Origin: Oscillospiraceae bacterium
GTDB lineage: Bacteria; Bacillota; Clostridia; Oscillospirales; QAMX01
DNA length: 64,000 nucleotides
NCBI GenBank assembly: GCA_015068345.1
Contig: SVKS01000002.1
Location: forward strand, 5,569 to 69,568
Direction: 5' to 3'
In this document: positions 40,266 to 64,000 of the stretch, one piece after another
Layout: every line of letters starts with the position of its first letter
How positions within the stretch are numbered: position 1 is the first letter of the stretch
Program-made: the position numbers and the translations under genes
The notes under the pieces: generated by a model
Databases searched by the model: none
Seen by the model: only the letters and a program-made list of their open reading frames with translations
What the model was told of the DNA's origin: nothing

Positions 40266-40281
40266 TTGTTATGATCTCCTC

Positions 40282-42240
<1,959 letters not shown>

Positions 42241-42265
42241 TCAGGCTGCCTTTCCTTGGTGTCTT

Positions 42266-42538
42266 TTAGAGAAGGGTTTGCGTGGGATTTTTGCTTCTTT
42301 TGTAAAGGGTTGAGGATGTAATCGGGGACATATACAGAATGTCCTTATCCCCTTTTTGTATCAAGATCAACGATTTAGGCAGGTCAAATACGCCTCCAAT
42401 GTTGATCAGGTTTTGCTTTTTTTCGTATTGCTCCAGAAATTCGGTACTTTCCCTGGAGGCGGTCAGGTTATCCAAATCGAAAATACCGATCAGATCCCGA
42501 TCGTCACACAGGATATGATTGCCAATATGCAGGTACAT
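42266..42538 (-). CDS. remB: DUF370 protein (RemB/YaaB-like) between recF and gyrB
   Basis: 90 aa. Same position as B. subtilis yaaB/remB. MYLHIGNHILCDDRDLIGIFDLD is a typical DUF370 start. Confidence 0.7.
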   Translation of the reverse strand: MYLHIGNHILCDDRDLIGIFDLDNLTASRESTEFLEQYEKKQNLINIGGVFDLPKSLILIQKGDKDILYMSPITSSTLYKRSKNPTQTLL

Positions 42539-43650
42539 TAAAAATCACATTCCTTTGTAATTTTGCCGTTATGGAACACAAATTGCTTTCCTTCGGTTTC
42601 TTTCGAAAGGGTAATAGGATCACAACAGGTGATAAAGATTTGTCCCCGGTGGATGTGGTTCAGAATGAAGTTTTTCCGTCCCGTGTCCAGTTCGGAAAGT
42701 ACGTCGTCCAGAAACAACACCGGTTGACATCCCGTGTCCATTTCAATCAGCTCCCGTTCGGCAAGCTTCAGGGAAAGAGCAATGCTGCGCATTTGGCCTT
42801 GGGAAGCATAATTTTTTGCCGCAAAATCATTGATGCTAATATTCAGGTCATCCTTGTGAATGCCGGAGAGGGGAGTTTCGGCTTCGAATTCGCTGTGCAT
42901 GAGTTCGGTGAGCCTTGCATAGATTTTGTCTTCATTTTCCCTGGGAGATGCTTCCGGATCTGCTTTTGAAATGGTCTTATAGTGAATAATCAGCTCTTCC
43001 CGCCCTCCGGAAAGACTTTCATGAAGCATTTTAGCCTCTTTTGTAAGAGAATCGCAAAAATTCTTTCTCATGGAAATAATTTCGGACGCAGAACGGGCCA
43101 TATCAGCATTATAAGCATCACATAACGTACGATTTTTCTCGTTATATTCCTCTTTCAAAAGAGCTCTTTTCATGCGAAGGGTACGATTGTAACGGGAAAG
43201 TGTTTCGTAGTAAAAAGGGCGAATCTGGCAAAGGGGAAGATCCAAAAGACGCCGTCTTTCGGAGGCTCCTGCTTTGATCAGGTAAAGATCGTCCGGTGTA
43301 AAAAGTACAACCGGCAGGATTCCGATCACGTCAGAGGATTTCCTTTGGGGAATGTCGTTGAGTAAAAGGTGTTTCTTTTTTCCCCGTTCCAGAGTAACTT
43401 CCAGGGTGAAATCGCGAACCCCATTGAAAAGGGTTTCGGAAATTCGAAAAAAGGGAGCATCGCGTCGGATCAAAATTTCGTCTTTTGGTGCCCGGAAGGA
43501 TTTCTGAGCAGAAAAATAAAACAAAGCTTCGATCAGATTCGTTTTCCCCTGGGCATTTTCACCGGAAATCAGGTTGACGTGGGGAGAAAAGGAACAGGAA
43601 AGAGATTCAAAGTTACGGAAATTTTCCAATTGAACCGAGTGGATCGGCAT
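42538..43650 (-). CDS. recF: DNA replication and repair protein RecF
   Basis: Walker A GENAQGKTNLIEA, signature-like ASQGQMRS, Walker B VLFLDDVLSELD. Confidence 0.95.
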   Translation of the reverse strand: MPIHSVQLENFRNFESLSCSFSPHVNLISGENAQGKTNLIEALFYFSAQKSFRAPKDEILIRRDAPFFRISETLFNGVRDFTLEVTLERGKKKHLLLNDIPQRKSSDVIGILPVVLFTPDDLYLIKAGASERRRLLDLPLCQIRPFYYETLSRYNRTLRMKRALLKEEYNEKNRTLCDAYNADMARSASEIISMRKNFCDSLTKEAKMLHESLSGGREELIIHYKTISKADPEASPRENEDKIYARLTELMHSEFEAETPLSGIHKDDLNISINDFAAKNYASQGQMRSIALSLKLAERELIEMDTGCQPVLFLDDVLSELDTGRKNFILNHIHRGQIFITCCDPITLSKETEGKQFVFHNGKITKECDF

Positions 43651-43671
43651 GGTTTAGATCCTTTCGTCGCT

Positions 43672-44784
43672 TTAGTTCTTCAAGCGGACCGGCATGATGA
43701 TCTGGATGTAGTTGTCGTTATTTTCGGGACGAACAACACAGGGCAGTACCGGGCTGGAAAGCTCCAGGGTCAGGTTATCTTCGTCAATGGCCTTGATGGC
43801 ATCCAGGAAAATACGGTTATTGAATCCGATTTCAAAATTTTCATAGCTTGTAGGAAGGTCGATCTCGTCACTTGCGGTACCCAGTGTGGAAACGCAGGAA
43901 AGGCGGGCCGTATTTCCTGAAAGTGAAAAACGAACGTGGTTGCGAAGTCTTTCATTGATAATCAACGAAACGCGTTCAGCAGCATCCGAGAGACGTTTTT
44001 GATCAAAGGGAACAATGATATGTCCTTTTTTGGGGATAAAGGAGTTATAGTCGTAATATTTGCCTTCCAAAAGACGGGAAATAACGGTGGTATTTTCCAG
44101 CTTGAAGCAAATACGCTTTTGGGAAAGGATGATTTCTACGGCGTCTTCCACGTCTTCCAGGATTTTTTCCATTTCACGGGCGGTTGGGCCAGGCAGAATG
44201 AAATCGAAATCCTTTTGATCGGCAGTCAGGTTCAAGAGCTTTTCCCGACGCATGGCCATACGATAGTTATCAATGGCAACGATATTAAGGATACCATCTT
44301 TTACGTCAAAGTATAACCCGGTCAAAATGGGTTTAATGTCGGTTTGTGCAGTAGCGAAGATGGTTTTTTCAATCATGTTCTTCAGAGTATCCTGGGGAAC
44401 AGTCAAAGAAAGCTCCTGTTCGATGGAGGGAATTTCCGGGAATTCGGCAGGGTCGATCAAAGGAATGGAAAATTCAACAGGGCCGCACTTGATATGGGTA
44501 ACCCCTTCACTTTCGGTTTCAAAGATAATGTTTTCATCGGGGAGCTTGCGGATAATGTCGGAAAAGAGACGGGCATTGACACAGGTTTTGCCTTCTTCTT
44601 CCACGTTGGCGCTGCACTTGGTAATGATACCGATTTCCAGATTGTAGGAAGTCAGGGTCAATCCTTCGAAGGTGCAATCGATCAAGATGCCTTCCAGGGC
44701 AGGAATAGCGTTTTTAGCGGATACGGCACGGGATGCAATCCCCAGGGATTCGGCTAATATGGCTTTCTGGCAGATAAATTTCAT
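43672..44784 (-). CDS. dnaN: DNA polymerase III beta sliding clamp
   Basis: ORF 43672..44811. ATG 44784 (MKFICQK..) follows AAGGAG. Three-domain clamp length (~370 aa). dnaA-dnaN-recF synteny. Confidence 0.95.
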   Translation of the reverse strand: MKFICQKAILAESLGIASRAVSAKNAIPALEGILIDCTFEGLTLTSYNLEIGIITKCSANVEEEGKTCVNARLFSDIIRKLPDENIIFETESEGVTHIKCGPVEFSIPLIDPAEFPEIPSIEQELSLTVPQDTLKNMIEKTIFATAQTDIKPILTGLYFDVKDGILNIVAIDNYRMAMRREKLLNLTADQKDFDFILPGPTAREMEKILEDVEDAVEIILSQKRICFKLENTTVISRLLEGKYYDYNSFIPKKGHIIVPFDQKRLSDAAERVSLIINERLRNHVRFSLSGNTARLSCVSTLGTASDEIDLPTSYENFEIGFNNRIFLDAIKAIDEDNLTLELSSPVLPCVVRPENNDNYIQIIMPVRLKN

Positions 44785-44799
44785 AGGCTCTCCTTGTGA

Positions 44800-45012
44800 A
44801 TATAAAGACAAATATAGTTTTTATTATTTTGTTGTTGTAGTAGAAGATGTGGATATGGTGGAAAAGCTATGGAAACAGGCTTGTCAGGCTGATTTCCAAG
44901 TTTGCATTTCTTGGGGATAAATCAAACGGGGTGGGGATAGCTTTGTGGACATCTTTGATTTACACACATCTACTTTTCCACTGTGGAAAACATCCTGTGG
45001 ATTTGTGGATTA
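44800..45012 (-). other. oriC: Chromosomal replication origin (oriC, dnaA-dnaN spacer): DnaA-box array, DnaA-trio-like triplets, AT-rich unwinding element
   Basis: Same-orientation boxes: TGTGGATAT 44848, TGGGGATAA 44912, TGGGGATAG 44932, TGTGGACAT 44944, TGTGGAAAA 44982, TGTGGATTT 44996, TGTGGATTA 45004. Triplets TTG TTG TTG TAG TAG AAG at 44829..44846. AT-rich 44800..44830 abuts the dnaN RBS. Confidence 0.8.
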
Positions 45013-46311
45013 ATTTTCCCGGGAAATGTCGAATGACAAATCCTTGATTTGTGCTTTGAATTCCGGGTCCTTTGCCATCATTTCTTCCACTTTTCGGATG
45101 GCGTTCATAACGGTGGTGTGATCTTTTCCAAATTCACGGCCGATCTCCGGAAGGGAAAGACCGATTTTTTCCCGAATCAGGTACATGGCTACCTGCCGGG
45201 GAACCAGTGCTTCCTTCCGGCGGCTGGTGGACCGGATGGTATCGGGTTCGATGCCATAGAATTTGGAAACCTCGGTTACTACCAAATTTGGGGTCATCAT
45301 GACACCGGGATCGTCCCGGAGTACGTCCTTGATGGCTTCGCTGACCATATCCAGGTCGATCACCTGGTGAAGGAGGTTTTGTTTTGCCATGAGTTTTTTG
45401 ACGGTACCCTCAATTTGACGAATGTTAGCCTTGATGGATTTTGCAATGTGTTGGCAAAGCTTTTCCGAAAGATCCAGTCCCAAAAGATCGGCTTTGTTTT
45501 TGATGATCGCCATACGGGTTTCGTAGTCGGGGTGGGCAATGTCGGCCAGAAGACCCGCTTCGAATCGGGAACGGATGCGGTTTTCCAGGGTATACATTTC
45601 CTTTGGTGGATGGTCGGCGGTGACAACAATCTGGATATTGGCCCCGTGGAGATAGTTGAAGGTGTGGAAGAATTCTTCTTCGGTCTGCTTTTTACCGGCA
45701 ATAAACTGAATATCGTCGATGAGAAGCAGATCGGCGTTGCGGTATTTTGCGCGGAACTCTTCCGTGCGTTGGGCACGCAGGGCGGAAATCAATTCGATGG
45801 TGAAGTCTTCTCCGGTGATGTAAACAATTTTCGCTCCCGGTTTGTTTTTCCGGATCACGTTTTCAATGGCCCGGAGAAGGTGGGTTTTACCAAGACCCGA
45901 ATCACCGTAGATATAGAGAGGGTTGTATTGATAGGCAGGCTTTTCGGCAACGGCCATGGCCGCAGCGTGGGCAAAACGGTTGGAAGGACCGACAACGAAA
46001 CGTTCGAAGGTGAATTCCTTGTATTCGCCGCCTTCTTCTTCCGTGTTTTCGAAAAGATCGGCTTCTTCCGGCGTCATCAGGACCACATGGACTTCGGCGG
46101 AAAACATATCGTAGAGCTTGCTTTCCATGATTTCCTTGTAGCGCTCTTCAATGTTATTTTTGGTAATTTGGGAAGGAACCGATATGTAAAGGGTGTTGTT
46201 CTGGAAGGCAATGGCACGGGCTTCGGAAAACCAAATGTTGATGGTAACCTGGGATAACTCGCTTTCCAGAAGTTTGAGGAGATTGGTAAGGATGTCCTGT
46301 ACTGTTTTCAA
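45010..46311 (-). CDS. dnaA: Chromosomal replication initiator protein DnaA
   Basis: ORF 45010..46581. Start set at TTG 46311 ((M)KTVQDILTNLL..), 7 nt after GGGGA, giving a typical length of 433 aa. Walker A GDSGLGKTHLL, LLIDDIQF, C-terminal DNA-binding DHTTVMNAIRKV. Confidence 0.93.
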   Translation of the reverse strand: MKTVQDILTNLLKLLESELSQVTINIWFSEARAIAFQNNTLYISVPSQITKNNIEERYKEIMESKLYDMFSAEVHVVLMTPEEADLFENTEEEGGEYKEFTFERFVVGPSNRFAHAAAMAVAEKPAYQYNPLYIYGDSGLGKTHLLRAIENVIRKNKPGAKIVYITGEDFTIELISALRAQRTEEFRAKYRNADLLLIDDIQFIAGKKQTEEEFFHTFNYLHGANIQIVVTADHPPKEMYTLENRIRSRFEAGLLADIAHPDYETRMAIIKNKADLLGLDLSEKLCQHIAKSIKANIRQIEGTVKKLMAKQNLLHQVIDLDMVSEAIKDVLRDDPGVMMTPNLVVTEVSKFYGIEPDTIRSTSRRKEALVPRQVAMYLIREKIGLSLPEIGREFGKDHTTVMNAIRKVEEMMAKDPEFKAQIKDLSFDISREN

Positions 46312-46399
46312 ATTTGTATTCCCCGTTTCTGAGTGGATTTTTTCCTTCGTAGGACCCAAGGATAACAGAGGGTTTCCCAAGGGGCATACCATACGATTT

Positions 46400-46428
46400 A
46401 TTGTACCACAAAATAGCGAAAATAGCAA
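46400..46428 (-). promoter_or_regulatory. Putative extended -10 promoter of dnaA
   Basis: Minus strand TTGCTA (46428..46423), 17-nt spacer ending in TGg, TACAAT (46405..46400). Confidence 0.4.
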
Positions 46429-46565
46429 GCCAAAATGACGGACAGACCACCACATTTTGTTATGAATCGGGAAAAAAATGAGCATCAAAAAAACGAGAAA
46501 AAAGGTAGCTTGAGAAAAAATCAAAAAGAATTTTTGAAAAAATACCCCAATTTCAAAAATAATCC

Positions 46566-46595
46566 TTGACAAAACGGTCATTTATGCTTTATAAT
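46566..46595 (+). promoter_or_regulatory. Putative promoter of rpmH-rnpA-yidD-yidC-jag
   Basis: TTGACA (46566..46571), 18-nt spacer, TATAAT (46590..46595). Confidence 0.6.
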
Positions 46596-46683
46596 CTCTT
46601 TTGCGTCATTGAGGGGATAACTATGCCCTTTTGAGAAGATGGGTCATGCCCCATTTTTAAAAATGCGAAAGGATGATTTCAAA

Positions 46684-46821
46684 ATGTTCAGAACATTCCA
46701 GCCCAAGAAAAAGCAGCGCAATAAGGAGTGCGGCTTCAGAAAGAGAATGCGCACCGCCAACGGCCGTAAGGTTCTCGCCCGCAGACGTGCCAAGGGCAGA
46801 TATAAGCTCAACCGCGTTTAA
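46684..46821 (+). CDS. rpmH: 50S ribosomal protein L34
   Basis: ORF 46639..46821. ATG 46684 gives [42 protein letters not shown].., the L34 signature. Confidence 0.95.
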
Positions 46822-46841
46822 TTTTCAAGTTACCTAAGCGT

Positions 46842-47180
46842 ATGAAATATACCGTACGGCTTAAAAACAGCAACGACTTTCGTAAATTGTATCGCAGAGG
46901 CAAGACCGCTGCACATCCTGTGATAGCGGTCTATTGCCGTGGAAACGGCCGCCGGGAAAATCGGGTCGGTGTTGCGGTCAGCGTAAAGCTTGGCAATGCT
47001 GTTTGGCGCAATCGGGTAAAACGGCGCCTTCGGGAGGTTTATCGCCTGCACGAGGATCGTTTTTTGCCTGGTCAGGACGTGATTTTTGTTGGCAGAAAGC
47101 GTACATATGACGCAAAGTTTTCTGAATTGGAATCTTCCATGCTGAAGATCTGCGGAAAGCTTGGTATGCTTCGCAAATGA
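46842..47180 (+). CDS. rnpA: Ribonuclease P protein component
   Basis: 112-aa basic protein. [14 protein letters not shown].. and [10 protein letters not shown] (RNR motif). Follows rpmH. Confidence 0.9.
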
Positions 47181-47422
47181 AAAGAATTCTGATCGGTTTG
47201 ATCCGTTTTTACCAAAGGTATATTTCTCCCATGAAAGGACCCTGTTGCAGGTTCATCCCGACCTGCTCGGAATATGCTGTCCTTTCGATTGAACGTTTCG
47301 GAGTTTTTCGTGGAGTGATTTTGAGTACACGCCGCATTTTGCGGTGTCATCCGCTCTGCCCGGGGGGATACGACCCGGTTCCGGAAACCTATCCCAAGTG
47401 GGGTAGAAAAAACAGCAACTAA
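47177..47422 (+). CDS. yidD: Membrane protein insertion efficiency factor YidD
   Basis: [27 protein letters not shown], the canonical YidD motif. Confidence 0.9.
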
Positions 47423-47472
47423 CAAAAGAAAGGAACGTTTTCTTTTTCCGTGGAAAAGAAAACAACTGAGAA

Positions 47473-48489
47473 ATGGACATCTTCGGCACATTGATTGCAC
47501 GTCCGTTTGGATGGGTTTTTTGGGCAATTCTGCAGGTTATCAATAACTACGGTATTGCAATCATTCTCTTTTCTCTGATCGTAAAGATCATTCTTTACCC
47601 CCTTCAGTACAAGAGCAAAAAGGGAATGCTTGCCCAACAGCGCCTCCAGTCCCAGATCAAGGACCTGGAAGCCCGCTATAAAAACGACAGAAACGCCTAT
47701 AACCAGGCCCTCCAGGAGCTTTATACCAAAAACGGAATCAGCCCGATGTCGGGATGCCTTCCCATGCTTCTGATGTTCCCAATCATGATCGGTCTTTACC
47801 GGGTGATCCGCCAGCCCATCACCTACGTGTTTGGCAAGGGCAAGGAACTGACCTCCATCATTGAAGGAATCATCGCCAATAACAGTGAAGCTGCCGCCGT
47901 ACTGCAGCCCATGTTGGAAAATCCCGCCAAGATTGTTGACGAAATTCCCATCATGCGCTATCTGACTGAGGCCGATCCTTACTTCATCGATATGACCTTC
48001 CTGGGTATGGATCTGACCGTTCAGCCCACCCTTTCCTGGAACGTACTTGTTCTTTTGCCCATTATTTCGGGTGTCACTGCCTATCTGATGAGCTATGTCA
48101 ATCAGAAGCTGCAGGAAAAGACCACCGGCGTACAGGTCCAGATGAATGGCAGCAGCAAGTCCCTTCTCTACACCATGCCTCTCCTTTCGGTGGTGATCGG
48201 TTTCACCCTTCCCGCCGGCCTGACTGTCTACTGGATTGCCAACAACATTCTGGGTATTGCCCAGGAATACGTGCTCCAGCTACAGATGCGTAAGATCATC
48301 CGGGTACAGGAAGAGAAAGAAGCAGCTGAGGAAGCGGTTACCCGTGCCCAGCGGGAAGCCGCCATGGAAAAGAACAGAGAAATCCAGAAGCAGATGAACG
48401 CATCCGGAAAGAAAAAGCAAAACAGTTCCAAAAAAACCTACAAGCTCAGCCGTCCGGCGAGAAATGCCAGCGACGACGATGATGATTGA
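47473..48489 (+). CDS. yidC: Membrane protein insertase YidC/SpoIIIJ family
   Basis: Polytopic. KIILYPL..KS.KGM..Q.LQ..I..L, MSGCLPMLLMFPI. Basic C-terminal tail. Confidence 0.9.
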   Translation: MDIFGTLIARPFGWVFWAILQVINNYGIAIILFSLIVKIILYPLQYKSKKGMLAQQRLQSQIKDLEARYKNDRNAYNQALQELYTKNGISPMSGCLPMLLMFPIMIGLYRVIRQPITYVFGKGKELTSIIEGIIANNSEAAAVLQPMLENPAKIVDEIPIMRYLTEADPYFIDMTFLGMDLTVQPTLSWNVLVLLPIISGVTAYLMSYVNQKLQEKTTGVQVQMNGSSKSLLYTMPLLSVVIGFTLPAGLTVYWIANNILGIAQEYVLQLQMRKIIRVQEEKEAAEEAVTRAQREAAMEKNREIQKQMNASGKKKQNSSKKTYKLSRPARNASDDDDD

Positions 48490-48506
48490 AAGGAAACCCA
48501 ACTGAA

Positions 48507-49166
48507 ATGAGTCAGAAATATATTGAAGTGTCCGGCAAGACCATCGAGGATGCTCTGGCAGAAGCCCTTGCAACACTGAATATGGATCGTGACAGCGTCA
48601 GCGTGGAAATCATCGAAAAGCCGAAGTCCGGCTTTTTGGGAATCGGTGCTGTTCCGGCAAAAATTCGTGTTTCGTATGAGTATTCCAAGGCGGACAAGAC
48701 TCGTGACTTCCTGGAAGAGCTGTTTAAGCTCATGAAGATGGAAGCCGCCGTGACCATCGGGGAAGAGGAAGAGGGTCGTTTGAACGTCTCCCTTTCCGGC
48801 GATGAAATGGGTCTGATGATCGGTCGCAGAGGGGAAAACCTGGATGCTCTCCAGTACATCACCAATCTTGCGGTCAACAAAAATGAAACCGACAGAGTTC
48901 GTGTCAATATCGACACCGAAAACTATCGGGAAAAGAGAGAAGAATCGCTGGAACGGCTGGCTAAGCGCGTAGCCGACAAGGTTCTGAAGTATGGCAGAAG
49001 CGTTTCCCTGGAGCCCATGCCGCCCAGTGAAAGACGCGTCGTGCATGCTTTCCTGCAGGACTACAAGGGAATCACCACCTTCTCTACCGGTAGCGAACCC
49101 CAGAGAAGAGTGATCGTTGCCCCTGCCGGTGCTCAGAATAAAAGAGAAAGAGATTCCAAAAAATAA
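48507..49166 (+). CDS. jag: RNA-binding protein Jag/KhpB (Jag-N, KH, R3H domains)
   Basis: ORF 48486..49166; ATG 48507. GRRGENLDALQYI (KH GxxG) and LEPMPPSERRVVHAFL (R3H). Confidence 0.9.
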   Translation: MSQKYIEVSGKTIEDALAEALATLNMDRDSVSVEIIEKPKSGFLGIGAVPAKIRVSYEYSKADKTRDFLEELFKLMKMEAAVTIGEEEEGRLNVSLSGDEMGLMIGRRGENLDALQYITNLAVNKNETDRVRVNIDTENYREKREESLERLAKRVADKVLKYGRSVSLEPMPPSERRVVHAFLQDYKGITTFSTGSEPQRRVIVAPAGAQNKRERDSKK

Positions 49167-49173
49167 ATCGCAT

Positions 49174-49207
49174 GGGGGAATGGGCGTAAGTCGATTCCCC
49201 TTTTTTG
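49174..49207 (+). terminator. Intrinsic terminator after jag
   Basis: GGGGAAT...ATTCCCC stem followed by TTTTTT. Confidence 0.7.
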
Positions 49208-49226
49208 ATATCAGCGGAGGAAAATC

Positions 49227-50606
49227 ATGGATCGTGATACCATTTGTGCCATTGCCTCCCCCGAAGGGAGAGGCGCTATTGGCGTAATCCGCATCAGCGG
49301 AAGAGATGCTTTTGCCTGTCTGGATCGGGTTTTTTATGCCAAAAGTGGAAAAAAAGCGGCTGAGCGGGTACCCCGGGATATGGTGATGGGTAAAATCTAT
49401 CATGGGGACCGGTTGGTGGACGAAGGTATGTGCGCCGTGTTTTTTGCTCCTGCTTCCTACACTGGGGAAAACTCCGCGGAGATATACTGTCATGGGGGCC
49501 GGGTGGTAACCCGGGAAATCCTGGCGGCCCTTTTGGAAAGCGGATGTCGGCTGGCCCGGGGAGGGGAATTTACCGAACGAGCATTCTTGAATGGTAAAAT
49601 GGATCTTGCCGCCGCCGAAGCGGTGGAGGAATTGATCGATGCGGCAAACCCGGTTTACGTCAGTACCGCCGCGGCCAATCTATCTGGCAGGTTTGGTCGG
49701 CGCATCAGGGAAATCCGGGATGAACTGATGGACGTGGCGGCCCATTATGCGGCTTGTCTCGACTATGCTGACGAAGGAGTAGAACCCCCTGATCCACAGG
49801 CTGTGGAAGAAAAGATGCTCCGGGCGGAGCGGGAGCTCCAAAAGCTTCGGGCTGGTTGTCTGGATGGAAAAATCGTTCGGGAAGGGGCACCGGTGGCCAT
49901 CGTGGGCCGTACCAACAGCGGCAAATCCACCCTGCTCAATTATATTTTAGGCTATGATCGGGCCATCGTCACCAATATTGCCGGTACCACCCGGGACATT
50001 ATCGAGGAAAGTATTTCTCTCAAAAACGGAACCCTGCGGTTTATTGATACCGCTGGTTTCCGGGAAACCGACGACCCGGTGGAGCGAATCGGCATTGAGC
50101 GAAGCCGGGAAAGTCTGGCCCGGGCAGAAATGGTACTGATGCTGTTTGACGGCAGTACTGCCCCCTCGGAAGAAGACAGAATTTCCGCACAGGCTGTGGA
50201 AAACGAATTGAAAGACCGACCCAATCTGCAGGTATTCAAGGTCATCAATAAGCAGGATAAGGGGCTTTCCTTCGGTTATGAAGCTTTTCTTCCGGAATTG
50301 GACCCTCTCTATATTTCGGCTGAGACCGGAGAGGGTGTAGATACCCTCCTGGAAAGTCTGGAAGAGAGCCTGAAAACCGGGTCGGATGAGGCCGATCTGG
50401 TGACCAATCTGCGCCACAGCGACGTGATTATCCGAGCAAGCGACGTATTAAGCGCCACCGTGGCCGATCAAAGAATGATGATGACCGACGACGTAATTTG
50501 GTCGGGGGTCATCTCGGCCTGCGAGATCCTTGGGGAAATCACAGGGGATGAAGTAAAAGAAGATATGATCCAGCGTATTTTTGCGCAGTTCTGCGTTGGA
50601 AAGTAA
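49227..50606 (+). CDS. mnmE: tRNA modification GTPase MnmE
   Basis: DTICAIASP N-terminus, G1 GRTNSGKST, G3 DTAG, NKQD, C-terminal FCVGK. Confidence 0.95.
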   Translation: MDRDTICAIASPEGRGAIGVIRISGRDAFACLDRVFYAKSGKKAAERVPRDMVMGKIYHGDRLVDEGMCAVFFAPASYTGENSAEIYCHGGRVVTREILAALLESGCRLARGGEFTERAFLNGKMDLAAAEAVEELIDAANPVYVSTAAANLSGRFGRRIREIRDELMDVAAHYAACLDYADEGVEPPDPQAVEEKMLRAERELQKLRAGCLDGKIVREGAPVAIVGRTNSGKSTLLNYILGYDRAIVTNIAGTTRDIIEESISLKNGTLRFIDTAGFRETDDPVERIGIERSRESLARAEMVLMLFDGSTAPSEEDRISAQAVENELKDRPNLQVFKVINKQDKGLSFGYEAFLPELDPLYISAETGEGVDTLLESLEESLKTGSDEADLVTNLRHSDVIIRASDVLSATVADQRMMMTDDVIWSGVISACEILGEITGDEVKEDMIQRIFAQFCVGK

Positions 50607-56387: not shown

Positions 56388-57362
56388 ATGATTGAACTCA
56401 AAGGCATTTCCAAAACTTTCAGGGTGGCCAAACGGAATTCCGGTATGACCGAGGCGGTAAAGGCACTGTTTCACCGGGAGTACACCCTGGTCCAGGCGTT
56501 GAAGGAGGTCTCCTTCAAGATCGACGAGGGGGAAATGGTGGGCTACATCGGGCCAAACGGGGCCGGCAAAAGCAGCACCGTGAAGGTGATGAGCGGGGTA
56601 CTGACTCCCGATTCGGGAAGCTGTATCATTGATGGCCGTACCCCCTGGAAGGAGCGGACGGCACACGTCCAAAACATCGGCGTGGTATTTGGCCAGCGGT
56701 CCCAGCTGTGGTGGGACGTGCCGGTGATCGACAGCTTTGACCTCATCCGGGATATCTACCGGGTGAATGGGCCAAGCTATCAGGCAACCCTGAAACGGCT
56801 CCTGGAGGAGCTGGACATCGGGGAAATTGTCAAAACTCCCGCCCGGCAGTTGTCACTGGGTCAGCGGATGCGTTGTGAAATTGCGGCTTCCCTGCTCCAT
56901 GATCCCAAAATCCTCTTTCTGGACGAGCCCACCATTGGACTGGATGCGGTGTCCAAAATCGCAGTACGTAATTTTATCAAAACCCTCAACAAAGAGAGGG
57001 GCACCACGGTGATCCTCACCACCCACGATATGTCGGATATTGAAGCCCTGACCGAGCGGATTCTGCTGATTGGCAAGGGGCAGATCCTGCTGGATGGGTC
57101 TCTGACCGAATTGAAAAACCGCCATTCCAAGCTCCGCCGCCTGACGGTGGACTATGCCGGGGAGTCTCTGCCCTCCATCCCGGGGGTAACCGTGGAGAAA
57201 AACCTTTCAGGTCACGCCACCCTGCAGGTGGATACGGGCATTCTTTCGGTGTCGGAGGTCATATCCAAGCTTTCGGAGGCGGTGGAGGTTACCGATCTCT
57301 CGGTGGAAAGCCAGCGGGTGGAGGATATGGTGGTATCCTTATACAAGGAGTTTGCCATATGA
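56388..57362 (+). CDS. ABC transporter ATP-binding protein (uncharacterised ABC-2 type system, COG4586-like)
   Basis: ORF 56331..57362. ATG 56388 follows AAAGGAGGG. Walker A GPNGAGKSS, signature LSLGQRMR, Walker B ILFLDEPT, plus a ~90-aa C-terminal extension. Confidence 0.9.
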   Translation: MIELKGISKTFRVAKRNSGMTEAVKALFHREYTLVQALKEVSFKIDEGEMVGYIGPNGAGKSSTVKVMSGVLTPDSGSCIIDGRTPWKERTAHVQNIGVVFGQRSQLWWDVPVIDSFDLIRDIYRVNGPSYQATLKRLLEELDIGEIVKTPARQLSLGQRMRCEIAASLLHDPKILFLDEPTIGLDAVSKIAVRNFIKTLNKERGTTVILTTHDMSDIEALTERILLIGKGQILLDGSLTELKNRHSKLRRLTVDYAGESLPSIPGVTVEKNLSGHATLQVDTGILSVSEVISKLSEAVEVTDLSVESQRVEDMVVSLYKEFAI

Positions 57363-58162
57363 GGAAATATCTCTCCTTTTTCCGGATCCGATTCCTTTCG
57401 GGGCTCCAATACCGGGCGGCGGCCTGGGCAGGGGTTGCCACCCAATTTGCCTGGGGCGGGATGAATATCCTCATGTACCGGGCCTTTTACCGGGCCGGGG
57501 CGGAGAATTTCCCCATGGAATTTGATTCTCTTTCCACCTATATCTGGCTCCAGCAGGCTCTTTTGGCCCTGTTTATGGCCTGGTATTTCGATAACGACAT
57601 TTTTGACAGCATTACCTCCGGCTCCATTTCCTACGAGCTTTGCCGGCCCTGTGACCTCTACACCATGTGGTTTGTCAAGAATATGGCGGTGCGGCTTTCC
57701 CGGGTGGTACTGCGGTGTTTTCCCATTTTGGCGGTGGCGGTCCTTCTGCCAAAACCCTACGGTATGACCCTACCCGGGTCGGTGACGGCGGGTCTACTTT
57801 TCCCGCTTTCGCTCATATTGGGCTTTTTGGTGCTGGTGGCCTTTTCCATGCTCATCTATATCTCGGCTTTCTACACCATCTCCCCCATCGGCATCCGGAT
57901 TTTAGCCACCTCGGTGGTGGAATTCTTCGCCGGGGCGGTGATTCCGATTCCCTTCTTCCCCACCTGGCTCCAACCTATCATGAACGCCCTCCCCTTCGCC
58001 TCCATGCAAAATACCCCCTTTCTCATTTACACCGGTCACGTGGGTGGGCAGGAGGCCATGTGGGCCATATTCCTGCAGGCGGTGTGGTTGGTAGTATTGG
58101 TTGGAATCGGCAAAATATGGATCCGCCGCGCCACCCGCCGGGTGGTTTTACAGGGAGGTTGA
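57359..58162 (+). CDS. ABC-2 family transporter permease (first of pair)
   Basis: 267 aa with about 6 TM segments. Start overlaps the ATPase stop (ATGA). Confidence 0.75.
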   Translation: MRKYLSFFRIRFLSGLQYRAAAWAGVATQFAWGGMNILMYRAFYRAGAENFPMEFDSLSTYIWLQQALLALFMAWYFDNDIFDSITSGSISYELCRPCDLYTMWFVKNMAVRLSRVVLRCFPILAVAVLLPKPYGMTLPGSVTAGLLFPLSLILGFLVLVAFSMLIYISAFYTISPIGIRILATSVVEFFAGAVIPIPFFPTWLQPIMNALPFASMQNTPFLIYTGHVGGQEAMWAIFLQAVWLVVLVGIGKIWIRRATRRVVLQGG

Positions 58163-59001: not shown

Positions 59002-59005
59002 TTCT

Positions 59006-59176
59006 TTATTTCTTTGCCAGTCTCATCACGGCGGGGGTGATCATCAGCATCAGAACCACCGTAATGAGCAGCTCGCCGGCCATGTAGCCGCCGTTATAGA
59101 GGAAGGAATAGAGCCATACGGGGGTTCCCTCCGGTGCGTAGATGTCCCAGATCAGGATGCCGCTGGCAAAGTGGCA
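59006..59176 (-). pseudogene. thiT: Displaced 3' fragment of a thiT (ECF thiamine S-component) gene
   Basis: Encodes ..CHFASGILIWDIYAPEGTPVWLYSFLYNGGYMAGELLITVVLMLMITPAVMRLAKK*, matching the C-terminus of 61630..62193. 59046..59176 is 126/131 identical to 61670..61800. Similarity ends abruptly at 59176. Confidence 0.85.
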
Positions 59177-59529
59177 AGGTCTATAATAAAAACCAAAAAA
59201 ACAAATGAAAAATAATGTAAAAATAGGAATAGTGAACAAAAATTACGAATATTGAGAAGAAAAATATATGAATGTTGCAAATTGCAACCGAAAGAAAAAT
59301 GTGATAAAATGTGGTTGCTGGAAGTTGGCAACCATTTATGGGAAAGTGGCAATTCTAAGGAGGGAAGGAAGTAATTGCCCGATTCCTTTCATTAGCAAGT
59401 TTTTTTCTCCATCCTTATAAAGTGGTAGACAAGATTGTTAGTACTAACGCTATCTTATTTCCGAGTTGGGCTTGATAGTGAAGCTGTAGTATCATCAATA
59501 TTGATAATGCAAAAAAGTAAGGAGTACTT

Positions 59530-60165
59530 ATGGGAAATATGGCAACTAAGAAAATATCTATTTTTTGTATGATTTTCTTTATTCTTTCCTTGATTGGGAG
59601 CCCAGTAGAGGCAACTACTTATGGGGCAAGAGCATATAATAGCAATTCATCTTCTTCTGTTAATTGTGCGGGATATGCTTTTGGATATAATGCTTGGTAT
59701 GGCTTTGATATTTATACGAATTCTAATATTGCAACATGGAATGCTTGTGATTCCCCAAGCGAACTGATGTCAGCAGTAAAGCAACAGATCAATGCCTACA
59801 TAGAAGCAAGAGCAACACTAAACAATATTCTCAGTAAAAAGAGTAGCTATTCTTACACAGTTGTTACTTCCTCACAATATAAAACTGTCTTTAAGTTGGC
59901 TTATCATGATACAGATGGGACAAATGGAATAAGTATAAATGCAGACGGCACAGGTGATAAATTTGATTTCCATTGGAGATTTCTTGCGTCCGATGGCAAA
60001 TGGTGCGAAAAGGTAGGTTATTCTTCATCAAGAATTTGTCCCAATAATGGTGGTACAAATGCAAATGGGATATCTCCTTTTACACTTATTTGGTATATGG
60101 GAACTTCGTCTTCTGGTTACCAATATAATTATCAAGGATATCATTATTTAAGAAGAGATTGGTAA
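59530..60165 (+). CDS. Secreted hypothetical protein (four Cys, N/S/T/G/Y-rich)
   Basis: AAGGAG 5 nt upstream of the ATG. Signal peptide MGNMATKKISIFCMIFFILSLIGSPVEA. Cys in VNCAGYAFG, WNACDSP, GKWCEKV, and SRICPNN. Aromatic tail YQYNYQGYHYLRRDW. Confidence 0.75.
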   Translation: MGNMATKKISIFCMIFFILSLIGSPVEATTYGARAYNSNSSSSVNCAGYAFGYNAWYGFDIYTNSNIATWNACDSPSELMSAVKQQINAYIEARATLNNILSKKSSYSYTVVTSSQYKTVFKLAYHDTDGTNGISINADGTGDKFDFHWRFLASDGKWCEKVGYSSSRICPNNGGTNANGISPFTLIWYMGTSSSGYQYNYQGYHYLRRDW

Positions 60166-60229
60166 TACTTTATTATGCTCATAATGTATAATACAACAGA
60201 AATAGCATTTGGAAAGGGGCAGGGTAAAG

Positions 60230-61564
60230 ATGCTGAAAAAAGGGTATTTATGGATTTCATTCGTCTTAATCACAGGGATCTTTCTGGTCTTTGCGGGATT
60301 TACTAAGAGCAACGTCATTCGGGTAGAATCGGATGACGTGAAGCGAAAAGTGGAAAGTATTACAGATAGTGGGAGTTATTCGTCGGACGACGTTAAAAAG
60401 CTGGAAGAAAGAATTCTCAATCATAAAGCAAAGCTAAAAACAGAGGTTTGGTATGGCGAGGAACTTCTTTCGGATATCCGCTTGAATGTGAATGGAACGT
60501 ATGCAGGCGGGAATATCGGCTACTACTGGCGATTCGTAAAGAATCAAATCGGACACTATCCAACCGAAAACGTCCGAAAAATGACCGACACGAAGGGTAC
60601 ATACTATTACTTGGTTTACCAATTGAATCATGGCGGTCGGCTTTTCCTTTTCAGCCGCGATGGCTTTGGCTATGGGTTCCCTGTTTATATGGAAAAGACG
60701 CTGGCGAAAAAGGATTTTGCGTCGCTTACTGTTGGGGATGATATGGAAAAGGTGGAAAAGATTGACCCGGCGTCGAAAAAAATGCGAGAGGCTTTTGAAA
60801 CAAGCCTTGGGAAAAAGGAGCCAATGGCTTTTATCCGGGATTGCGAAACGCTTGACGCCTATTATCCCTTTACCTCGGTGCACCTCCTTACCGATGGACT
60901 TTTGCTCATTGAATACGACGTGGTGGGAGAAGCGACAGAACGGCACTATGTTGTACGGGACATTCTGTGGAATGAGGAGTTTTTGATGCCGGACTTTGCT
61001 CCGATCTATATGGCAGACTATTATGCGGAAACAGGTATCAAGGTGGAAGCAAAACGTTACCCTATGAAGATACTTGAGCAGGATTATATAGGAGGAGAAA
61101 CCCCGGTTTCCTATGGGAAGATGCCGGAAAAAGAAACCGTTGTCTTGGCAGATGAAATAGAATGGGAAATCTCAATCCGGAACGAGAAAGAAGGGAAAAC
61201 GGAGGAAAGCATTTTGAGTCGCAGGAAGGCAGAGGAGATGGAGCTAAAAACGGTGATTGCTTCAAGATATGAAAAGAACAATCCGCAAGGGTCAATACAG
61301 ACAATCTTTGCACAAGGTATCACTGTTGAGACCTTGCTTCAAAGCATAAAGAGTGAGGGGGCAAAGGGAATAACGGTTCTTGATTCGACCGGAGCGAAGC
61401 ACAATATGGATTTACAGGAGATGGAAGCAGAGGATTGGATAATTGCCTGGGTAGAAAATAAACAATATGCCATGTCAGATAGTAAGACATATGTTGCATT
61501 TGTTAGGGATGGCGGGATGCCCGATCAATATATTGCTTCGGTGGAGTCCATTATGATTCATTGA
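60230..61564 (+). CDS. Membrane-anchored hypothetical protein (single N-terminal TM, large extracytoplasmic part)
   Basis: ORF 60209..61564; ATG 60230 (MLKKGYLWISFVLITGIFLVFAGF..). 444 aa. No motif recognised. Confidence 0.7.
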   Translation: MLKKGYLWISFVLITGIFLVFAGFTKSNVIRVESDDVKRKVESITDSGSYSSDDVKKLEERILNHKAKLKTEVWYGEELLSDIRLNVNGTYAGGNIGYYWRFVKNQIGHYPTENVRKMTDTKGTYYYLVYQLNHGGRLFLFSRDGFGYGFPVYMEKTLAKKDFASLTVGDDMEKVEKIDPASKKMREAFETSLGKKEPMAFIRDCETLDAYYPFTSVHLLTDGLLLIEYDVVGEATERHYVVRDILWNEEFLMPDFAPIYMADYYAETGIKVEAKRYPMKILEQDYIGGETPVSYGKMPEKETVVLADEIEWEISIRNEKEGKTEESILSRRKAEEMELKTVIASRYEKNNPQGSIQTIFAQGITVETLLQSIKSEGAKGITVLDSTGAKHNMDLQEMEAEDWIIAWVENKQYAMSDSKTYVAFVRDGGMPDQYIASVESIMIH

Positions 61565-61589
61565 TATAACATAATGTGCGGCAAAGGCA

Positions 61590-61632
61590 AAAAATTCCCC
61601 CGGATTCCCTGGAATCCGGGGGACGCTTTTTA
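61590..61632. terminator. Bidirectional terminator between island gene and thiT
   Basis: TCCCCCGGATTCC / GGAATCCGGGGGA stem. T-run on the minus strand (AAAAAA 61589..61594 on plus) and CGCTTTTT on the plus strand. Confidence 0.75.
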
Positions 61633-62193
61633 CTTTTTGGCGATTTTCAAAACGGATGGGGCCAAAAGGAGCATCAGAACCACCGTAATGATCAGCTCGC
61701 CGGCCATGTAGCCGCCGTTATAGAGGAAGGAATAGAGCCACACGGGGGTTCCCTCCGGGGCGTACACGTCCCAGATCAGGATGCCGCTGGCAAAGTGGCA
61801 CAGGAAACGGAGAATTACCACCGCCGACCCGGCCAAGGTAGCCGACAGGGCGGGCTTGAGCTTGCCAAAGGGTTTCCGGAACAGGTCCGCAAGGCCCAAT
61901 CCGCCAAATGCCACCACGTAGTCCAGCATGATTACCAGGAAGAAGGCCCAAACGGTGTTGGTGGGGGGCGGGTAGAAGCCCAGCATCATCTGGATCAGGC
62001 TGTAGGCAACCGAGCCGATCAGACCCCATTTGGTGCCAAAGAGCAGGGCAAAGAGGATGATGGGAACCATGCTCCCCAGGGTGATGGACCCGCCGTAGCT
62101 CCAGGCAGGCAGCGGGAGCTTCAGGAAGGAGAGGACGGTGGCAAGGGCCACCAGGACGGCGCCGGTGCAAAGCGCCTTCAGGTTGGTTTTCAT
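61630..62193 (-). CDS. thiT: ECF transporter S component for thiamine (ThiT)
   Basis: 187 aa with 6 TM segments. FLCHFASGILIWDVYAPEG...YSFLYNGGY parallels the recalled L. lactis ThiT FFHFIAGIIFWSQYA...YSLAVNG. Preceded by a TPP riboswitch. Confidence 0.85.
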   Translation of the reverse strand: MKTNLKALCTGAVLVALATVLSFLKLPLPAWSYGGSITLGSMVPIILFALLFGTKWGLIGSVAYSLIQMMLGFYPPPTNTVWAFFLVIMLDYVVAFGGLGLADLFRKPFGKLKPALSATLAGSAVVILRFLCHFASGILIWDVYAPEGTPVWLYSFLYNGGYMAGELIITVVLMLLLAPSVLKIAKK

Positions 62194-62434: not shown

Positions 62435-63208
62435 TTAATTTGCCGAATCGTCGTAAATTCTCTGGTACATTCCCTCGGCCAACACCGACGTAAAGGTAGC
62501 CTTTTCGTAGAAGAAGGTTAAGGGGCTGGTGTAAGCGTCCAGAATGGTATTGGCGTTGAAGTAGAGGGTGATGCCACCGTCCTGCAGGAAGAAGGCCGCC
62601 ACCGAAGCATCGGTCAGCGAAAGCTTGGAGAAATAGTCCTCCCCCATGTGTAAAGCCAGGTTTTGGTCGCTTTCCAGGGAGGCGATGATCAACTGGGCGG
62701 CACCGGCCAGGTTTGGAGTACCCAAAAGATCGGCCAGGGTCAAAATGGTCTGGTCGGCAATGGAGTAAAACACCGAACGGTATTCGGTGATGGGATCCTT
62801 GCCGGGATAGCGGATCTGGTAGGTCATCAATACCGAAACGTATTTGGCGGTGGCGTGGATGGAATAATCGCCGAACAGGACTCCCTTGCTGCCGTCTTCG
62901 GGCTTGTCCACTGTGGACATGGTGTCCTTGAAATCGTTGACAATCGACTCGGTCATGGTGTCCAAGAAGAAGTCGGCCTCCTCCATGCCAAGCACCGGGG
63001 TATGAATGCCTACGGTGTAGCGGTCGCTGTTATAAAGGGTGCTTTTGGTTTCGTATCCATCGCCGCCCTTGTGGGTGGAAACGTAGGCGTAAAGGTCGGC
63101 GGTATACACCTTGTCGGAGGTATCCCCTTCTGCGATTTTCAGGCAGGAGCATAGGGAAACCATCAAGCAGAATACCAAAAACAGAGGTAAAAGACGGGAA
63201 ATTTTCAT
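62435..63208 (-). CDS. Hypothetical lipoprotein (possibly DUF3298/DUF4163-like; tentative)
   Basis: ORF 62435..63232. ATG 63208 (MKISRLLPLFLVFCLMVSLCS|C lipobox). Confidence 0.6.
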   Translation of the reverse strand: MKISRLLPLFLVFCLMVSLCSCLKIAEGDTSDKVYTADLYAYVSTHKGGDGYETKSTLYNSDRYTVGIHTPVLGMEEADFFLDTMTESIVNDFKDTMSTVDKPEDGSKGVLFGDYSIHATAKYVSVLMTYQIRYPGKDPITEYRSVFYSIADQTILTLADLLGTPNLAGAAQLIIASLESDQNLALHMGEDYFSKLSLTDASVAAFFLQDGGITLYFNANTILDAYTSPLTFFYEKATFTSVLAEGMYQRIYDDSAN

Positions 63209-63228
63209 GGGAAAACCTTCTTTCATCG

Positions 63229-64000
63229 TCATTTTAACACGACGTTTGCCTCTCCCATCAGCCGGACCAAACCGGCAAGCAGGGCATCCGACAGCTCCAC
63301 AGGGAGCTCGGCAGAGGCGTACTTTTTTTCAGCTTCGTCGTAAAAGATCACGGGTGTTGTTCCCGAAAGGTAGGAGAGAAGCGAAATGACCCGATCCAGA
63401 TTGTGCCGATTGGCTTCTCCAAACCGCAGGTAGAGCTTATGGGGCTTTTCCCGGGGGGGAGGTGTGCCGACGGGGATGTCCTGCGTCTGGGGCGGCGGGG
63501 ACGCATCGGGGGTCTGGCGGGGTGTGGCGGGCCGGGGGGCATACCGCTTTTTTTCTGCCAGAGAGGGGGGCGTGGATGCCGGGGCGATTAGGTCGGCGAT
63601 CAGCTTGGGCTTTTCGTCTTCCCGTACCGTCAGCTTACCAAGCACCGCCACCGCATTGTCTGCCCGGACGTAGATGCCGCATTCCGAAAGGGTTCTGGAG
63701 AAACAGAGAATCTCCATGCTTCCGTCCACGTCCTCCAGGGTGATATAGGCCATGGCGGAACCCGATTTGGTGGTTTTGGTTTTGACGGCACCGATAATAC
63801 CCGCAATCAGCAGGGTTTCCCCATCCTGGAAGCGTTTGGAAGTCTCATAAAGAGTATCGGATTCCTCTTCGGCAGGGGCGTACTCCTTCAGGATCTCTCC
63901 GATGGAGACGGCTCCGGCGTTTTTCAGATTCTGGGTGTATTCCTGCATGGGATGACCTGAAAGGTAGAGACCGGTGGTCTCCTTTTCCATGGAAAGCAGG
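63229..64000 (-). CDS. dnaE: DNA polymerase III alpha subunit (DnaE-type), C-terminal part; continues beyond window
   Basis: EKETTGLYLSGHPM, OB-fold segment (LLIAGIIGAVKTKTTKSGSAMAYITLEDVDGSMEI). The frame is open to the window end. Confidence 0.8.
   Translation of the reverse strand, partial: LLSMEKETTGLYLSGHPMQEYTQNLKNAGAVSIGEILKEYAPAEEESDTLYETSKRFQDGETLLIAGIIGAVKTKTTKSGSAMAYITLEDVDGSMEILCFSRTLSECGIYVRADNAVAVLGKLTVREDEKPKLIADLIAPASTPPSLAEKKRYAPRPATPRQTPDASPPPQTQDIPVGTPPPREKPHKLYLRFGEANRHNLDRVISLLSYLSGTTPVIFYDEAEKKYASAELPVELSDALLAGLVRLMGEANVVLK

Follow-up and report, generated by a model that had tools for sequence, protein, structure and literature searches.

Two adjacent genes in an Oscillospiraceae contig

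The window (the whole stretch of 64,000 nucleotides (nt) of Oscillospiraceae bacterium contig SVKS01000002.1 that was analyzed) contains two neighboring genes on the plus strand, referred to below as A and B, which constitute a conserved two-gene cassette of gut and rumen Clostridia and may encode a secreted effector and its immunity protein. Gene A (59530–60165) encodes a protein of 211 amino acids (aa) consisting of a Sec signal peptide (aa 1–28) and a single Cys/His domain. Gene B (60230–61564) encodes a protein of 444 aa when read from the ATG at 60230. In the NCBI records, both products (MBE6998685.1 and MBE6998686.1, respectively) are “hypothetical proteins”. The window is part of a metagenome-assembled genome of an Oscillospiraceae/Ruminococcaceae bacterium of the rumen or gut.

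The open reading frame (ORF) of B extends from 60209 to 61564 and would yield 451 aa if a TTG start were used; the 444-aa start is the choice of public gene callers. A check of the ORFs confirmed the coordinates, lengths and 64-nt gap that had been given for both genes in an initial annotation made from the sequence alone. The ribosome-binding site of A, AAGGAG, is located 5 nt ahead of its ATG, while that of B is a weaker AGGG, also 5 nt ahead of the ATG. The spacer between the genes (60166–60229, plus strand, 64 nt) is devoid of terminator-like sites and includes, at 60209–60221, a copy (TTGGAAAGGGGCA) of a 13-nt motif described below. Judging from the existence of homologs (65% identity of A to protein P0002 and 32% identity of B to protein P0004) and from the presence of both families in many genomes, A and B are real genes rather than chance ORFs.

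Protein A represents an undescribed Cys/His domain in its minimal form

The N-terminus of A (MGNMATKKISIFCMIFFILSLIGSPVEA/TTYG) has, as read from the sequence, a KK n-region, a hydrophobic core and a V-E-A triplet before the likely cleavage site, with the mature protein starting at T29; the Sec signal peptide of the initial annotation was thus recovered. Mature A contains exactly four cysteines (C46, C73, C159 and C170; a fifth, C13, is part of the signal peptide), a histidine within FDFHWRF (H148) and an aromatic tail (YQYNYQGYHYLRRDW), all of which had been recorded as well.

A word-indexed protein search with A retrieved only two relatives, an identical protein and the 65%-identical P0002, even when a profile was used. 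An exhaustive HMMER search of 1.84 billion representatives retrieved 33 proteins. Once low-complexity repeat matches had been removed, alignment revealed an undescribed domain, about 175 aa long, with motifs Y-G-x-R-x-Y, N-C-[AM]-G-Y-A, Y-R-V-V-L-R-V-G-Y, D-[YF]-H-W-[WR]-Y-Q-T-x-x-G-x-W-A-[ED]-K, and N-P followed by W; A represents its minimal form. Residue conservation was counted in 47 unique near-full-length A domains, including those from genomes and metagenomes, whose mutual identity is only 22–30%. Cys46, His148, Gly156 and Trp158 are present in 47/47 domains and N45 in 46/47. The cysteine of N-C-A-G-Y and the histidine of FDFHW are exactly the two invariant residues that the initial annotation had highlighted. 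The Cys46 codon occupies positions 59665–59667 (plus strand; motif N-C-A-G-Y-A; candidate nucleophile), and the His148 codon positions 59971–59973 (plus strand; motif D-F-H-W; candidate general base). Glu160, located in W-C-E-K 12 residues past His148, aligns with W-A-[ED]-K of the family. With an invariant Cys preceded by Asn, an invariant histidine on a predicted strand and an acidic residue at +12, Cys46 and His148 look like the center of a thiol hydrolase. As for the remaining cysteines, C73 is found in less than half of the family members, and C159 and C170 in the closest relatives only. Since C46 alone is conserved, a four-Cys, disulfide-stabilized, bacteriocin-like protein can be ruled out, and the four-Cys description of the initial annotation is incidental.

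The minimal architecture, a signal peptide followed by the domain, is common to window A and to proteins P0006 and P0010. Most relatives are secreted proteins of 450–780 aa in which the A domain is the C-terminal module, preceded either by DUF7948 and CBM96/DNRLRE modules or by PPC. This C-terminal position is the one where toxin or catalytic modules usually sit. In the 65%-identical homolog of A on contig L011, the signal peptide (MRISRFARIVSAL...; positions 30–130) is out of frame with the mature part, which reflects either a 1-nt assembly error or a real frameshift (pseudogene).

Protein B belongs to a family of predicted outward-facing proteins

Protein B has a single hydrophobic segment (about aa 6–24; 60245–60301, plus strand) and no lipobox cysteine. 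A V-F-A/G sequence following the segment is a possible signal peptidase I site, and the segment is therefore either an anchor or a cleaved signal; the single N-terminal transmembrane (TM) anchor of the initial annotation stands as far as the one segment is concerned. A word-indexed search with B retrieved only two relatives, the distant one being P0004, a lipoprotein 32% identical to B over the first 290 residues.

Members of the B family share a domain of about 220 aa that ends with Y-x-I-x-x-x-D-Y and is located behind a lipobox or an N-terminal helix and a low-complexity linker. In window B, this conserved extracytoplasmic domain, delimited by alignment and by hidden Markov model (HMM) matches at other loci, corresponds to positions 60425–61093 (about aa 66–288, plus strand) and carries motifs YPTENVR, RLFLF, DFASL..GD..E.V..IDP, TSVHLLTDGLL.IEY and ILEQDY. 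Since a lipobox (L-x-x-C) is present in about half of the B homologs that were read, and a hydrophobic helix at the N-terminus in the others, the domain is expected to face outward, on the side to which A is exported by Sec. All other members of the family end at the end of the domain, whereas window B continues for about 155 residues (61100–61561, plus strand). This C-terminal extension is restricted to some haplotypes and has no homolog outside the window species; other haplotypes lack it and have about 400 nt with a metzincin gene fragment in its place. The “large external region” that the initial annotation treated as one unit is thus resolved into a conserved domain and a strain-specific extension. 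Called lengths in the 90%-identity cluster of B (P0003 and P0038–P0046) vary from 309 to 483 aa with the same N-terminal 290 residues, a spread that comes largely from differing called start codons. P0042 is from an A-deleted haplotype, yet it has kept the long tail.

Two fusions place the B domain in other contexts. At 1990–4618 of contig L079, a BlaI-type repressor gene (Penicillinase_R, 2e-22) is followed by a gene for a BlaR1 M56 protein (4e-44), whose C-terminal extracellular part is a B-like domain (E 4e-47), with no penicillin-binding domain. At 2–1687 of contig L080, in a 562-aa frame that reaches the contig start, leucine-rich repeats (LRR_4, 9e-21) are joined to a B-family domain. 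The B domain therefore appears to be a portable extracytoplasmic binding module.

A is always followed by B

We scanned one genome per GTDB species with the A-domain profile and obtained 15 loci, all in metagenome-assembled genomes (MAGs) of gut or rumen Clostridia (Christensenellaceae, Lachnospiraceae and “Clostridiales”); an earlier genome scan with the close A subfamily had returned no loci. Further A loci were collected by look-ups of individual A-family proteins, and the A domains were sorted into 23 lineages that share at most 90% identity.

A downstream gene on the same strand is present in 23/23 lineages, and in 18 of them it was confirmed as B by a six-frame HMM search (E 1e-23 to 1e-107). 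In these 18 lineages, the B frame opens at −253 to +44 nt relative to where the A frame ends; such common overlap of the two frames fits translational coupling. The contigs of the other five lineages end within 330 nt of A, and a TM or lipoprotein ORF begins on each of them: a profile match supports B homology of this ORF start in L011 and L017, the one in L016 is B-like by eye, and those in L025 and L027 match the N-terminus of the B protein of L030. There was no lineage (0/23) without a downstream partner ORF. The initial annotation's view of the two genes as a functional pair is thereby upheld, as they do co-occur elsewhere.

The cassette is found in unrelated housekeeping contexts, for example, upstream of rpoB/rpoC (L034) or between AMP-ligase (acyl-CoA ligase) and POR genes (L036), and is therefore a self-contained two-gene unit. 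The loci come from gut, rumen and bioreactors.

B occurs without A and is retained when A is lost

A metagenome scan seeded with B retrieved 45 loci, with an A-domain gene upstream of B in 6/45 and no such gene in 39/45; the search was biased by the peptide patterns used, and the share of B without A is no population estimate. About 24 of the A-less loci have at least 2 kb of upstream sequence by which to judge, and B is alone there. Tandem B paralogs without A were found in L050, L052, L054 and L073. Arrays also occur next to A: at 8510–10137 of L019 (= L038), two intact tandem B genes follow one A, and at 3433–5471 of L021, an A-B pair is followed by an orphan A-domain fragment (4381–4563) and then by a second B with a broken frame.

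Loss of A can be followed within species. In the window species, A is precisely deleted (59352–60208) in L013–L015 and many MAGs, with B intact and the same upstream region. Between the haplotypes with and without A, B differs by five non-synonymous and six synonymous codon changes, which gives a ratio of non-synonymous to synonymous substitution rates (dN/dS) of about 0.23, a value of low power, being based on only 11 changed codons. In a human-gut species, contig L068 (1992–3796) encodes a 644-aa DUF7948-CBM96-A protein and B, while in eight other contigs (L056, L059, L061, L062, L065 and L069–L071) the body of A is swapped for about 635 nt (L059:3303–3937) and B is unchanged. The flanks of these eight contigs are about 92–99% identical to L068, and the insert encodes an unrelated small lipoprotein-like ORF. 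The swap spares the promoter region and the first 20 or so codons of the A gene. Thus, there are two independent species cases in which A was lost or replaced and B was retained. Immunity genes would be expected to show such an asymmetric relationship. The orphan and tandem B genes, together with the loss of A with B kept in two species, also fit the suggestion of the initial annotation that the genes are a toxin with its immunity protein or a hydrolase with its partner.

Neither protein matches a known family

Searches of A, B and their homologs against Pfam, NCBIfam, PHROGs and PADLOC returned nothing above noise, and no catalogued toxin (Tox-*/Ntox*), immunity (Imm*) or defense model was matched. 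Sequence and profile searches of PDB with A and B gave only chance matches (phosphate-binding protein, GAPDH and MCT-1; all E > 0.1). That neither protein could be assigned to a named family, as the initial annotation had stated, agrees with these results.

The same annotation had noted, as a speculation, a resemblance of the N-C-A-G-Y context and the distal histidine to NlpC/P60 or papain-like sites. This likeness does not extend beyond the motif level. The order and spacing of Cys, His and a third polar residue (E160 = H148+12) match those of NlpC/P60 (peptidase C40; PF00877). However, none of 22 A-family members has any Pfam match at E ≤ 10, and the hhalign probability is 0.3% for a 22-sequence A profile compared with Spr/7CFL/LytE, a template of only three sequences, so that remote homology is still possible. 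Membership of the staphopain-type or transglutaminase-like clan CA peptidases is likewise not supported (hhalign 0.6% for staphopain A/B and 1.3% for the factor XIII core; no Pfam match); the targets were small alignments made from PDB sequences, and only short active-site motifs align. Pfam, which includes models of CHAP, C39 and LapG-type domains, gave no match in the 22 members at E ≤ 10. A class III bacteriocin with FemABX-type immunity finds no support either, there being no M23, CHAP, amidase or FemABX match in A or B.

A is a candidate effector and B its candidate immunity protein

We propose that A may be a Sec-secreted thiol-hydrolase effector and B a surface-tethered immunity or inhibitor protein, and assign this reading a probability of about 0.5. 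It rests on the pattern of sequences described above: A is never found without B, B is often alone or arrayed, A was lost with B kept, both proteins carry export signals, and the A domain is C-terminal behind carbohydrate-binding modules. Since the partner is outward-facing and membrane-tethered, the effector would act outside of the cytoplasmic membrane.

According to the proposed mechanism, A would be exported by Sec, its signal peptide would be removed, and it would be released as a single Cys/His domain protein of about 180 aa. The invariant Cys46 and His148, probably together with Glu160, would form the catalytic center of a thiol hydrolase (a peptidase or an amidase). The target would be extracytoplasmic, since B is expected on the outer face of the membrane and the relatives of A carry CBM96/DNRLRE or PPC modules; most simply, it would be the envelope of competing Gram-positive bacteria. 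B would be co-transcribed with A, because there is no terminator between the genes in the window and the ORFs abut or overlap in most relatives, and would be tethered by a lipid anchor or an N-terminal helix. At the surface of the producer, the B domain of about 220 aa is predicted to bind and block A-type domains, which would result in immunity. Strains that have lost A and keep B would then stay protected from their A-producing kin.

Several points weigh against this reading. Neither A nor B has significant similarity to a known hydrolase, toxin or immunity family. AlphaFold2, run with two-sequence alignments, gave no usable fold for either protein (predicted local distance difference test scores (pLDDT) of 35 for A and 37 for B); in the low-confidence model of A, H148 and E160 are on adjacent strands, an arrangement to which we give no weight. 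The invariant Cys and His could instead bind metal or be structural. Window A is without any targeting module of its own. The orphan B genes might indicate a general role of B that has nothing to do with A. The bias of the B-seeded search and the low power of the dN/dS estimate, both mentioned above, count on the same side.

One alternative differs from the effector-immunity reading mainly in the biological target. A could be a secreted cysteine protease or another hydrolase used for nutrition, surface remodeling or interaction with the host and not as a weapon against bacteria, with B as a self-protection inhibitor outside of the membrane. The invariant Cys and His are in line with it, as are the CBM96 and PPC modules fused to the domain (exoenzymes with a degradative role typically carry such modules), the operon with a tightly linked partner and the gut, rumen and bioreactor habitats. 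We nevertheless consider it rather unlikely. The model inhibitors of this kind, staphostatins and Spi, are cytoplasmic, whereas B is exported; the A family shows no profile similarity to staphopains (0.6%); and orphan and tandem B genes, as well as polymorphism of A with B fixed, are better explained by protection against A coming from other cells.

The lack of lineages with A and without B (0/23) is also what one would expect if A depended on B for activity. A could then be an enzyme that is secreted, and B a foldase or maturation factor of the Lif kind that is anchored in the membrane, dedicated to A, and activates it rather than blocking it. The architecture is the same: the gene of a Sec-exported enzyme, then a gene in the same orientation, often overlapping, whose product is an extracytoplasmic partner tethered to the membrane. 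However, B often occurs without A, including in tandem paralogs, and is intact after deletion or replacement of A in two species, while loss of the client should lead to the decay of a dedicated foldase. In addition, a B-like domain is the sensor of a BlaR1-type protein, and B has no sequence similarity to Lif or PrsA families. This makes a foldase function of B doubtful.

It is improbable that A and B are non-enzymatic surface or matrix proteins (an adhesin, or a signaling ligand with its receptor) in which Cys and His are structural or bind metal: the lack of detectable homology to any enzyme, the receptor-like use of a B-like domain in the BlaR1-type sensor and the failure of AlphaFold to give a fold would agree with it, but one invariant Cys after an Asn, one invariant His on a D-x-H-W strand and an acidic residue at +12 are the usual catalytic signature, structural cysteines normally come in conserved pairs while the other cysteines of A are not conserved, and the A domain occupies the catalytic or toxin position of multidomain relatives.

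Comparison with known systems

A secreted effector with an adjacent immunity protein is an already known kind of system. Tae/Tai pairs (for example, Tse1-Tsi1 and Tae4-Tai4) consist of cell-wall amidase effectors of type VI secretion systems (T6SS) and periplasmic immunity proteins. Like A-B, they combine a small Cys/His hydrolase with an exported, often lipidated neutralizer located in the compartment of action, and orphan immunity genes are common. In contrast to A, which has a Sec signal and no NlpC/P60 similarity, Tae proteins are of NlpC/P60 or CHAP type, are delivered by T6SS and have no signal peptide. The hosts of A-B are monoderm Clostridia, and there is no secretion apparatus near the cassette, unlike in the case of Tae/Tai.

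TelC-TipC of Streptococcus pairs an effector with an outward-facing, membrane-bound immunity partner. Outward-facing immunity proteins, as we propose B to be, are known for toxins of the LXG/WapA type that act outside of the membrane. In these polymorphic toxins, as in the multidomain relatives of A, the toxin module is the C-terminal part of a larger secreted protein, and the immunity gene is located directly downstream. The N-terminal part of WapA, a Sec-dependent polymorphic toxin of Streptococcus suis (PMC12704120), includes a DNRLRE domain, and so do the multidomain relatives of A. Unlike LXG/WapA systems, A-B has no LXG domain, no Rhs or YD repeats and no Esx or type VII secretion system (T7SS) genes, and window A is a signal peptide and a domain only.

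Class III bacteriolysins (lysostaphin-Lif, zoocin A-Zif and enterolysin A) are heat-labile lytic proteins that Gram-positive bacteria secrete through Sec and that have a self-protection gene next to them, an arrangement comparable to the one proposed for A-B; their genes are often on mobile DNA and strain-variable. However, they have M23, M37 or other known peptidoglycan-hydrolase domains and cytoplasmic FemABX-type immunity proteins, neither of which is matched by A or B. In the staphopain-staphostatin and SpeB-Spi pairs, a gene for a secreted cysteine protease is followed by a gene for its specific inhibitor, and the nucleophile context of staphopains, W-C-A-G-Y, is similar to N-C-A-G-Y of A at the level of the motif. 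The staphostatin and Spi inhibitors are cytoplasmic and unrelated to B, and the 0.6% hhalign probability given above is that of the A family against staphopains. In lipase-Lif operons, the gene of a secreted enzyme is likewise followed by that of an N-terminally membrane-anchored partner; however, this Lif is an all-helical steric chaperone that is not known to be orphaned or arrayed, whereas B is often orphaned.

The sensor of BlaR1 is homologous to an antibiotic-binding resistance protein. In L079, the B-like domain takes the place of this penicillin-binding sensor in an M56 protein encoded beside BlaI. By analogy, B would be a binder of the threat, as suggested by this one locus. Window B differs from BlaR1 in having no M56 domain and no BlaI nearby.

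Interbacterial antagonism is well mapped in gut Bacteroidota (T6SS, Bacteroidales secreted antimicrobial proteins (BSAPs)) and, among Bacillota, in a few (LXG/T7SS, bacteriocins). For the dominant anaerobic Clostridia, such as Oscillospiraceae, Christensenellaceae and Lachnospiraceae, it has been poorly explored. A literature search for the domains of the A relatives, albusin B, immunity lipoproteins of Clostridia and BlaR1 with immunity found no description of the pair. None of the libraries and papers searched contains the A and B families or their obligatory pairing, nor the apparent delivery by Sec only and the fusion to BlaR1.

It is possible, and we put it forward tentatively, that A and B are the founders of two undescribed families making up a widespread Sec-dependent antagonism system of gut and rumen Clostridia that needs no contact between cells and no secretion apparatus of its own. 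The toxin, a thiol hydrolase that possibly has a new fold, would be either free or attached to CBM96/DNRLRE or PPC targeting modules. The lipoprotein immunity domains would neutralize it at the cell surface; they would have spread as orphan resistance genes and, at least once, would have been wired to a BlaR1/BlaI switch through which incoming protein toxins could be sensed and answered. If the effector-immunity reading is true, A and B are a toxin family and an immunity family so far unrecognised by any database, with a cheap mode of delivery based on Sec export only. The presence or absence of A with B fixed would be a simple marker of strain competition in rumen and human-gut metagenomes, and the Cys/His domain would be a candidate new hydrolase, possibly active on the cell wall. 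The fusion to BlaR1 hints at how protein toxins might be sensed by bacteria. Should the reading be wrong, the tight linkage of A to B still defines a two-component module worth a biochemical look.

The cassette lies in a low-GC insert at the 3′ end of thiT

The GC (guanine plus cytosine) content is 35–47% over 59250–61500 as opposed to 53–60% in the flanks. A repeat search revealed a direct repeat of 172 nt with 88% identity, 59005–59176 and 61629–61800, that corresponds to the 3′ end of thiT. The left copy (minus strand) is a displaced thiT 3′ fragment inside a 77-aa ORF (59006–59239) matching Thia_YuaJ. The right copy (minus strand) is the 3′ end of the intact thiT (61630–62193, minus strand; TIGR02357 ThiT, 1.8e-33), the gene of the thiamine energy-coupling factor (ECF) S-component. 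The insert (59177–61628) is thus flanked by a duplicated gene end, and no integrase, transposase or other recombinase ORF was found in it. The low GC content and the duplicated thiT end support horizontal acquisition of the cassette, apparently into the 3′ end of thiT. Searches by tblastn with the mature A of the window against plasmids and with the A domain of a relative against phages returned no match, so nothing points to a phage or a plasmid as the vehicle.

Upstream of A, the insert starts with a leader (59177–59529, plus strand) that is AT-rich in composition. It contains a promoter-like site at 59282–59310 (TTGCAA-17-TAAAAT with TG) found by a scan for consensus matches only, as well as a copy of the 13-nt motif. 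At the other end, between the stop codons of B and thiT, there is a bidirectional terminator-like hairpin with a 12-bp stem (61596–61623).

The 13-nt motif (TGGSAAAGKGGCA) comes from the coding sequence of thiT and is found at the ends of both repeats (59164–59176 and 61788–61800). The leader copy upstream of A (TGGGAAAGTGGCA) is at 59339–59351, and the one just upstream of B (60209–60221) has one mismatch. There are three exact copies in the window compared to 0.03 expected by chance, and all motif copies have the same orientation. The copies mark the boundaries of the island modules, and the deletion of A in related strains runs exactly between those at 59339 and 60209, with the spacer copy as its right endpoint. 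The motifs are probably microhomologies for recombination. A role as a general recombination site of the cassette was ruled out, since only the island of the window species has the motif and the cassettes of other species lack it.

The right end of the island is a mosaic. Haplotypes of the L013 type have about 400 nt in place of window positions 61114–61627, and this replacement segment carries a metzincin gene fragment (HEIGHVLGMGHD ... SIMYP). At 6677–6853 of L013, and also in L014 and L015, a 58-aa ORF fragment with a metzincin zinc-protease signature follows the short B in the haplotype without A. The fragment may be what is left of a further gene for a secreted protease at the same hotspot. 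The two haplotypes also differ in about the last 45 nt of the intact thiT, and a recombination tract therefore extends over the 3′ end of B and over the end of thiT.

Two genes flanking the insert are also without a Pfam match. One of them (62435–63232, minus strand), between thiT and dnaE, encodes a putative lipoprotein of 265 aa (257 aa as called); the other (57359–58162, plus strand) encodes a 267-aa membrane protein within an ABC-2 transporter operon. In contig L001, which is identical, mnmE, mnmG, rsmG and parB are located just upstream of the cassette, and the cumulative GC skew of the window has its minimum near 38–41 kb (region of about 39000–50000). Judging from this minimum and from the neighborhood of mnmE/mnmG/rsmG/parB, the cassette is located near the replication origin region.

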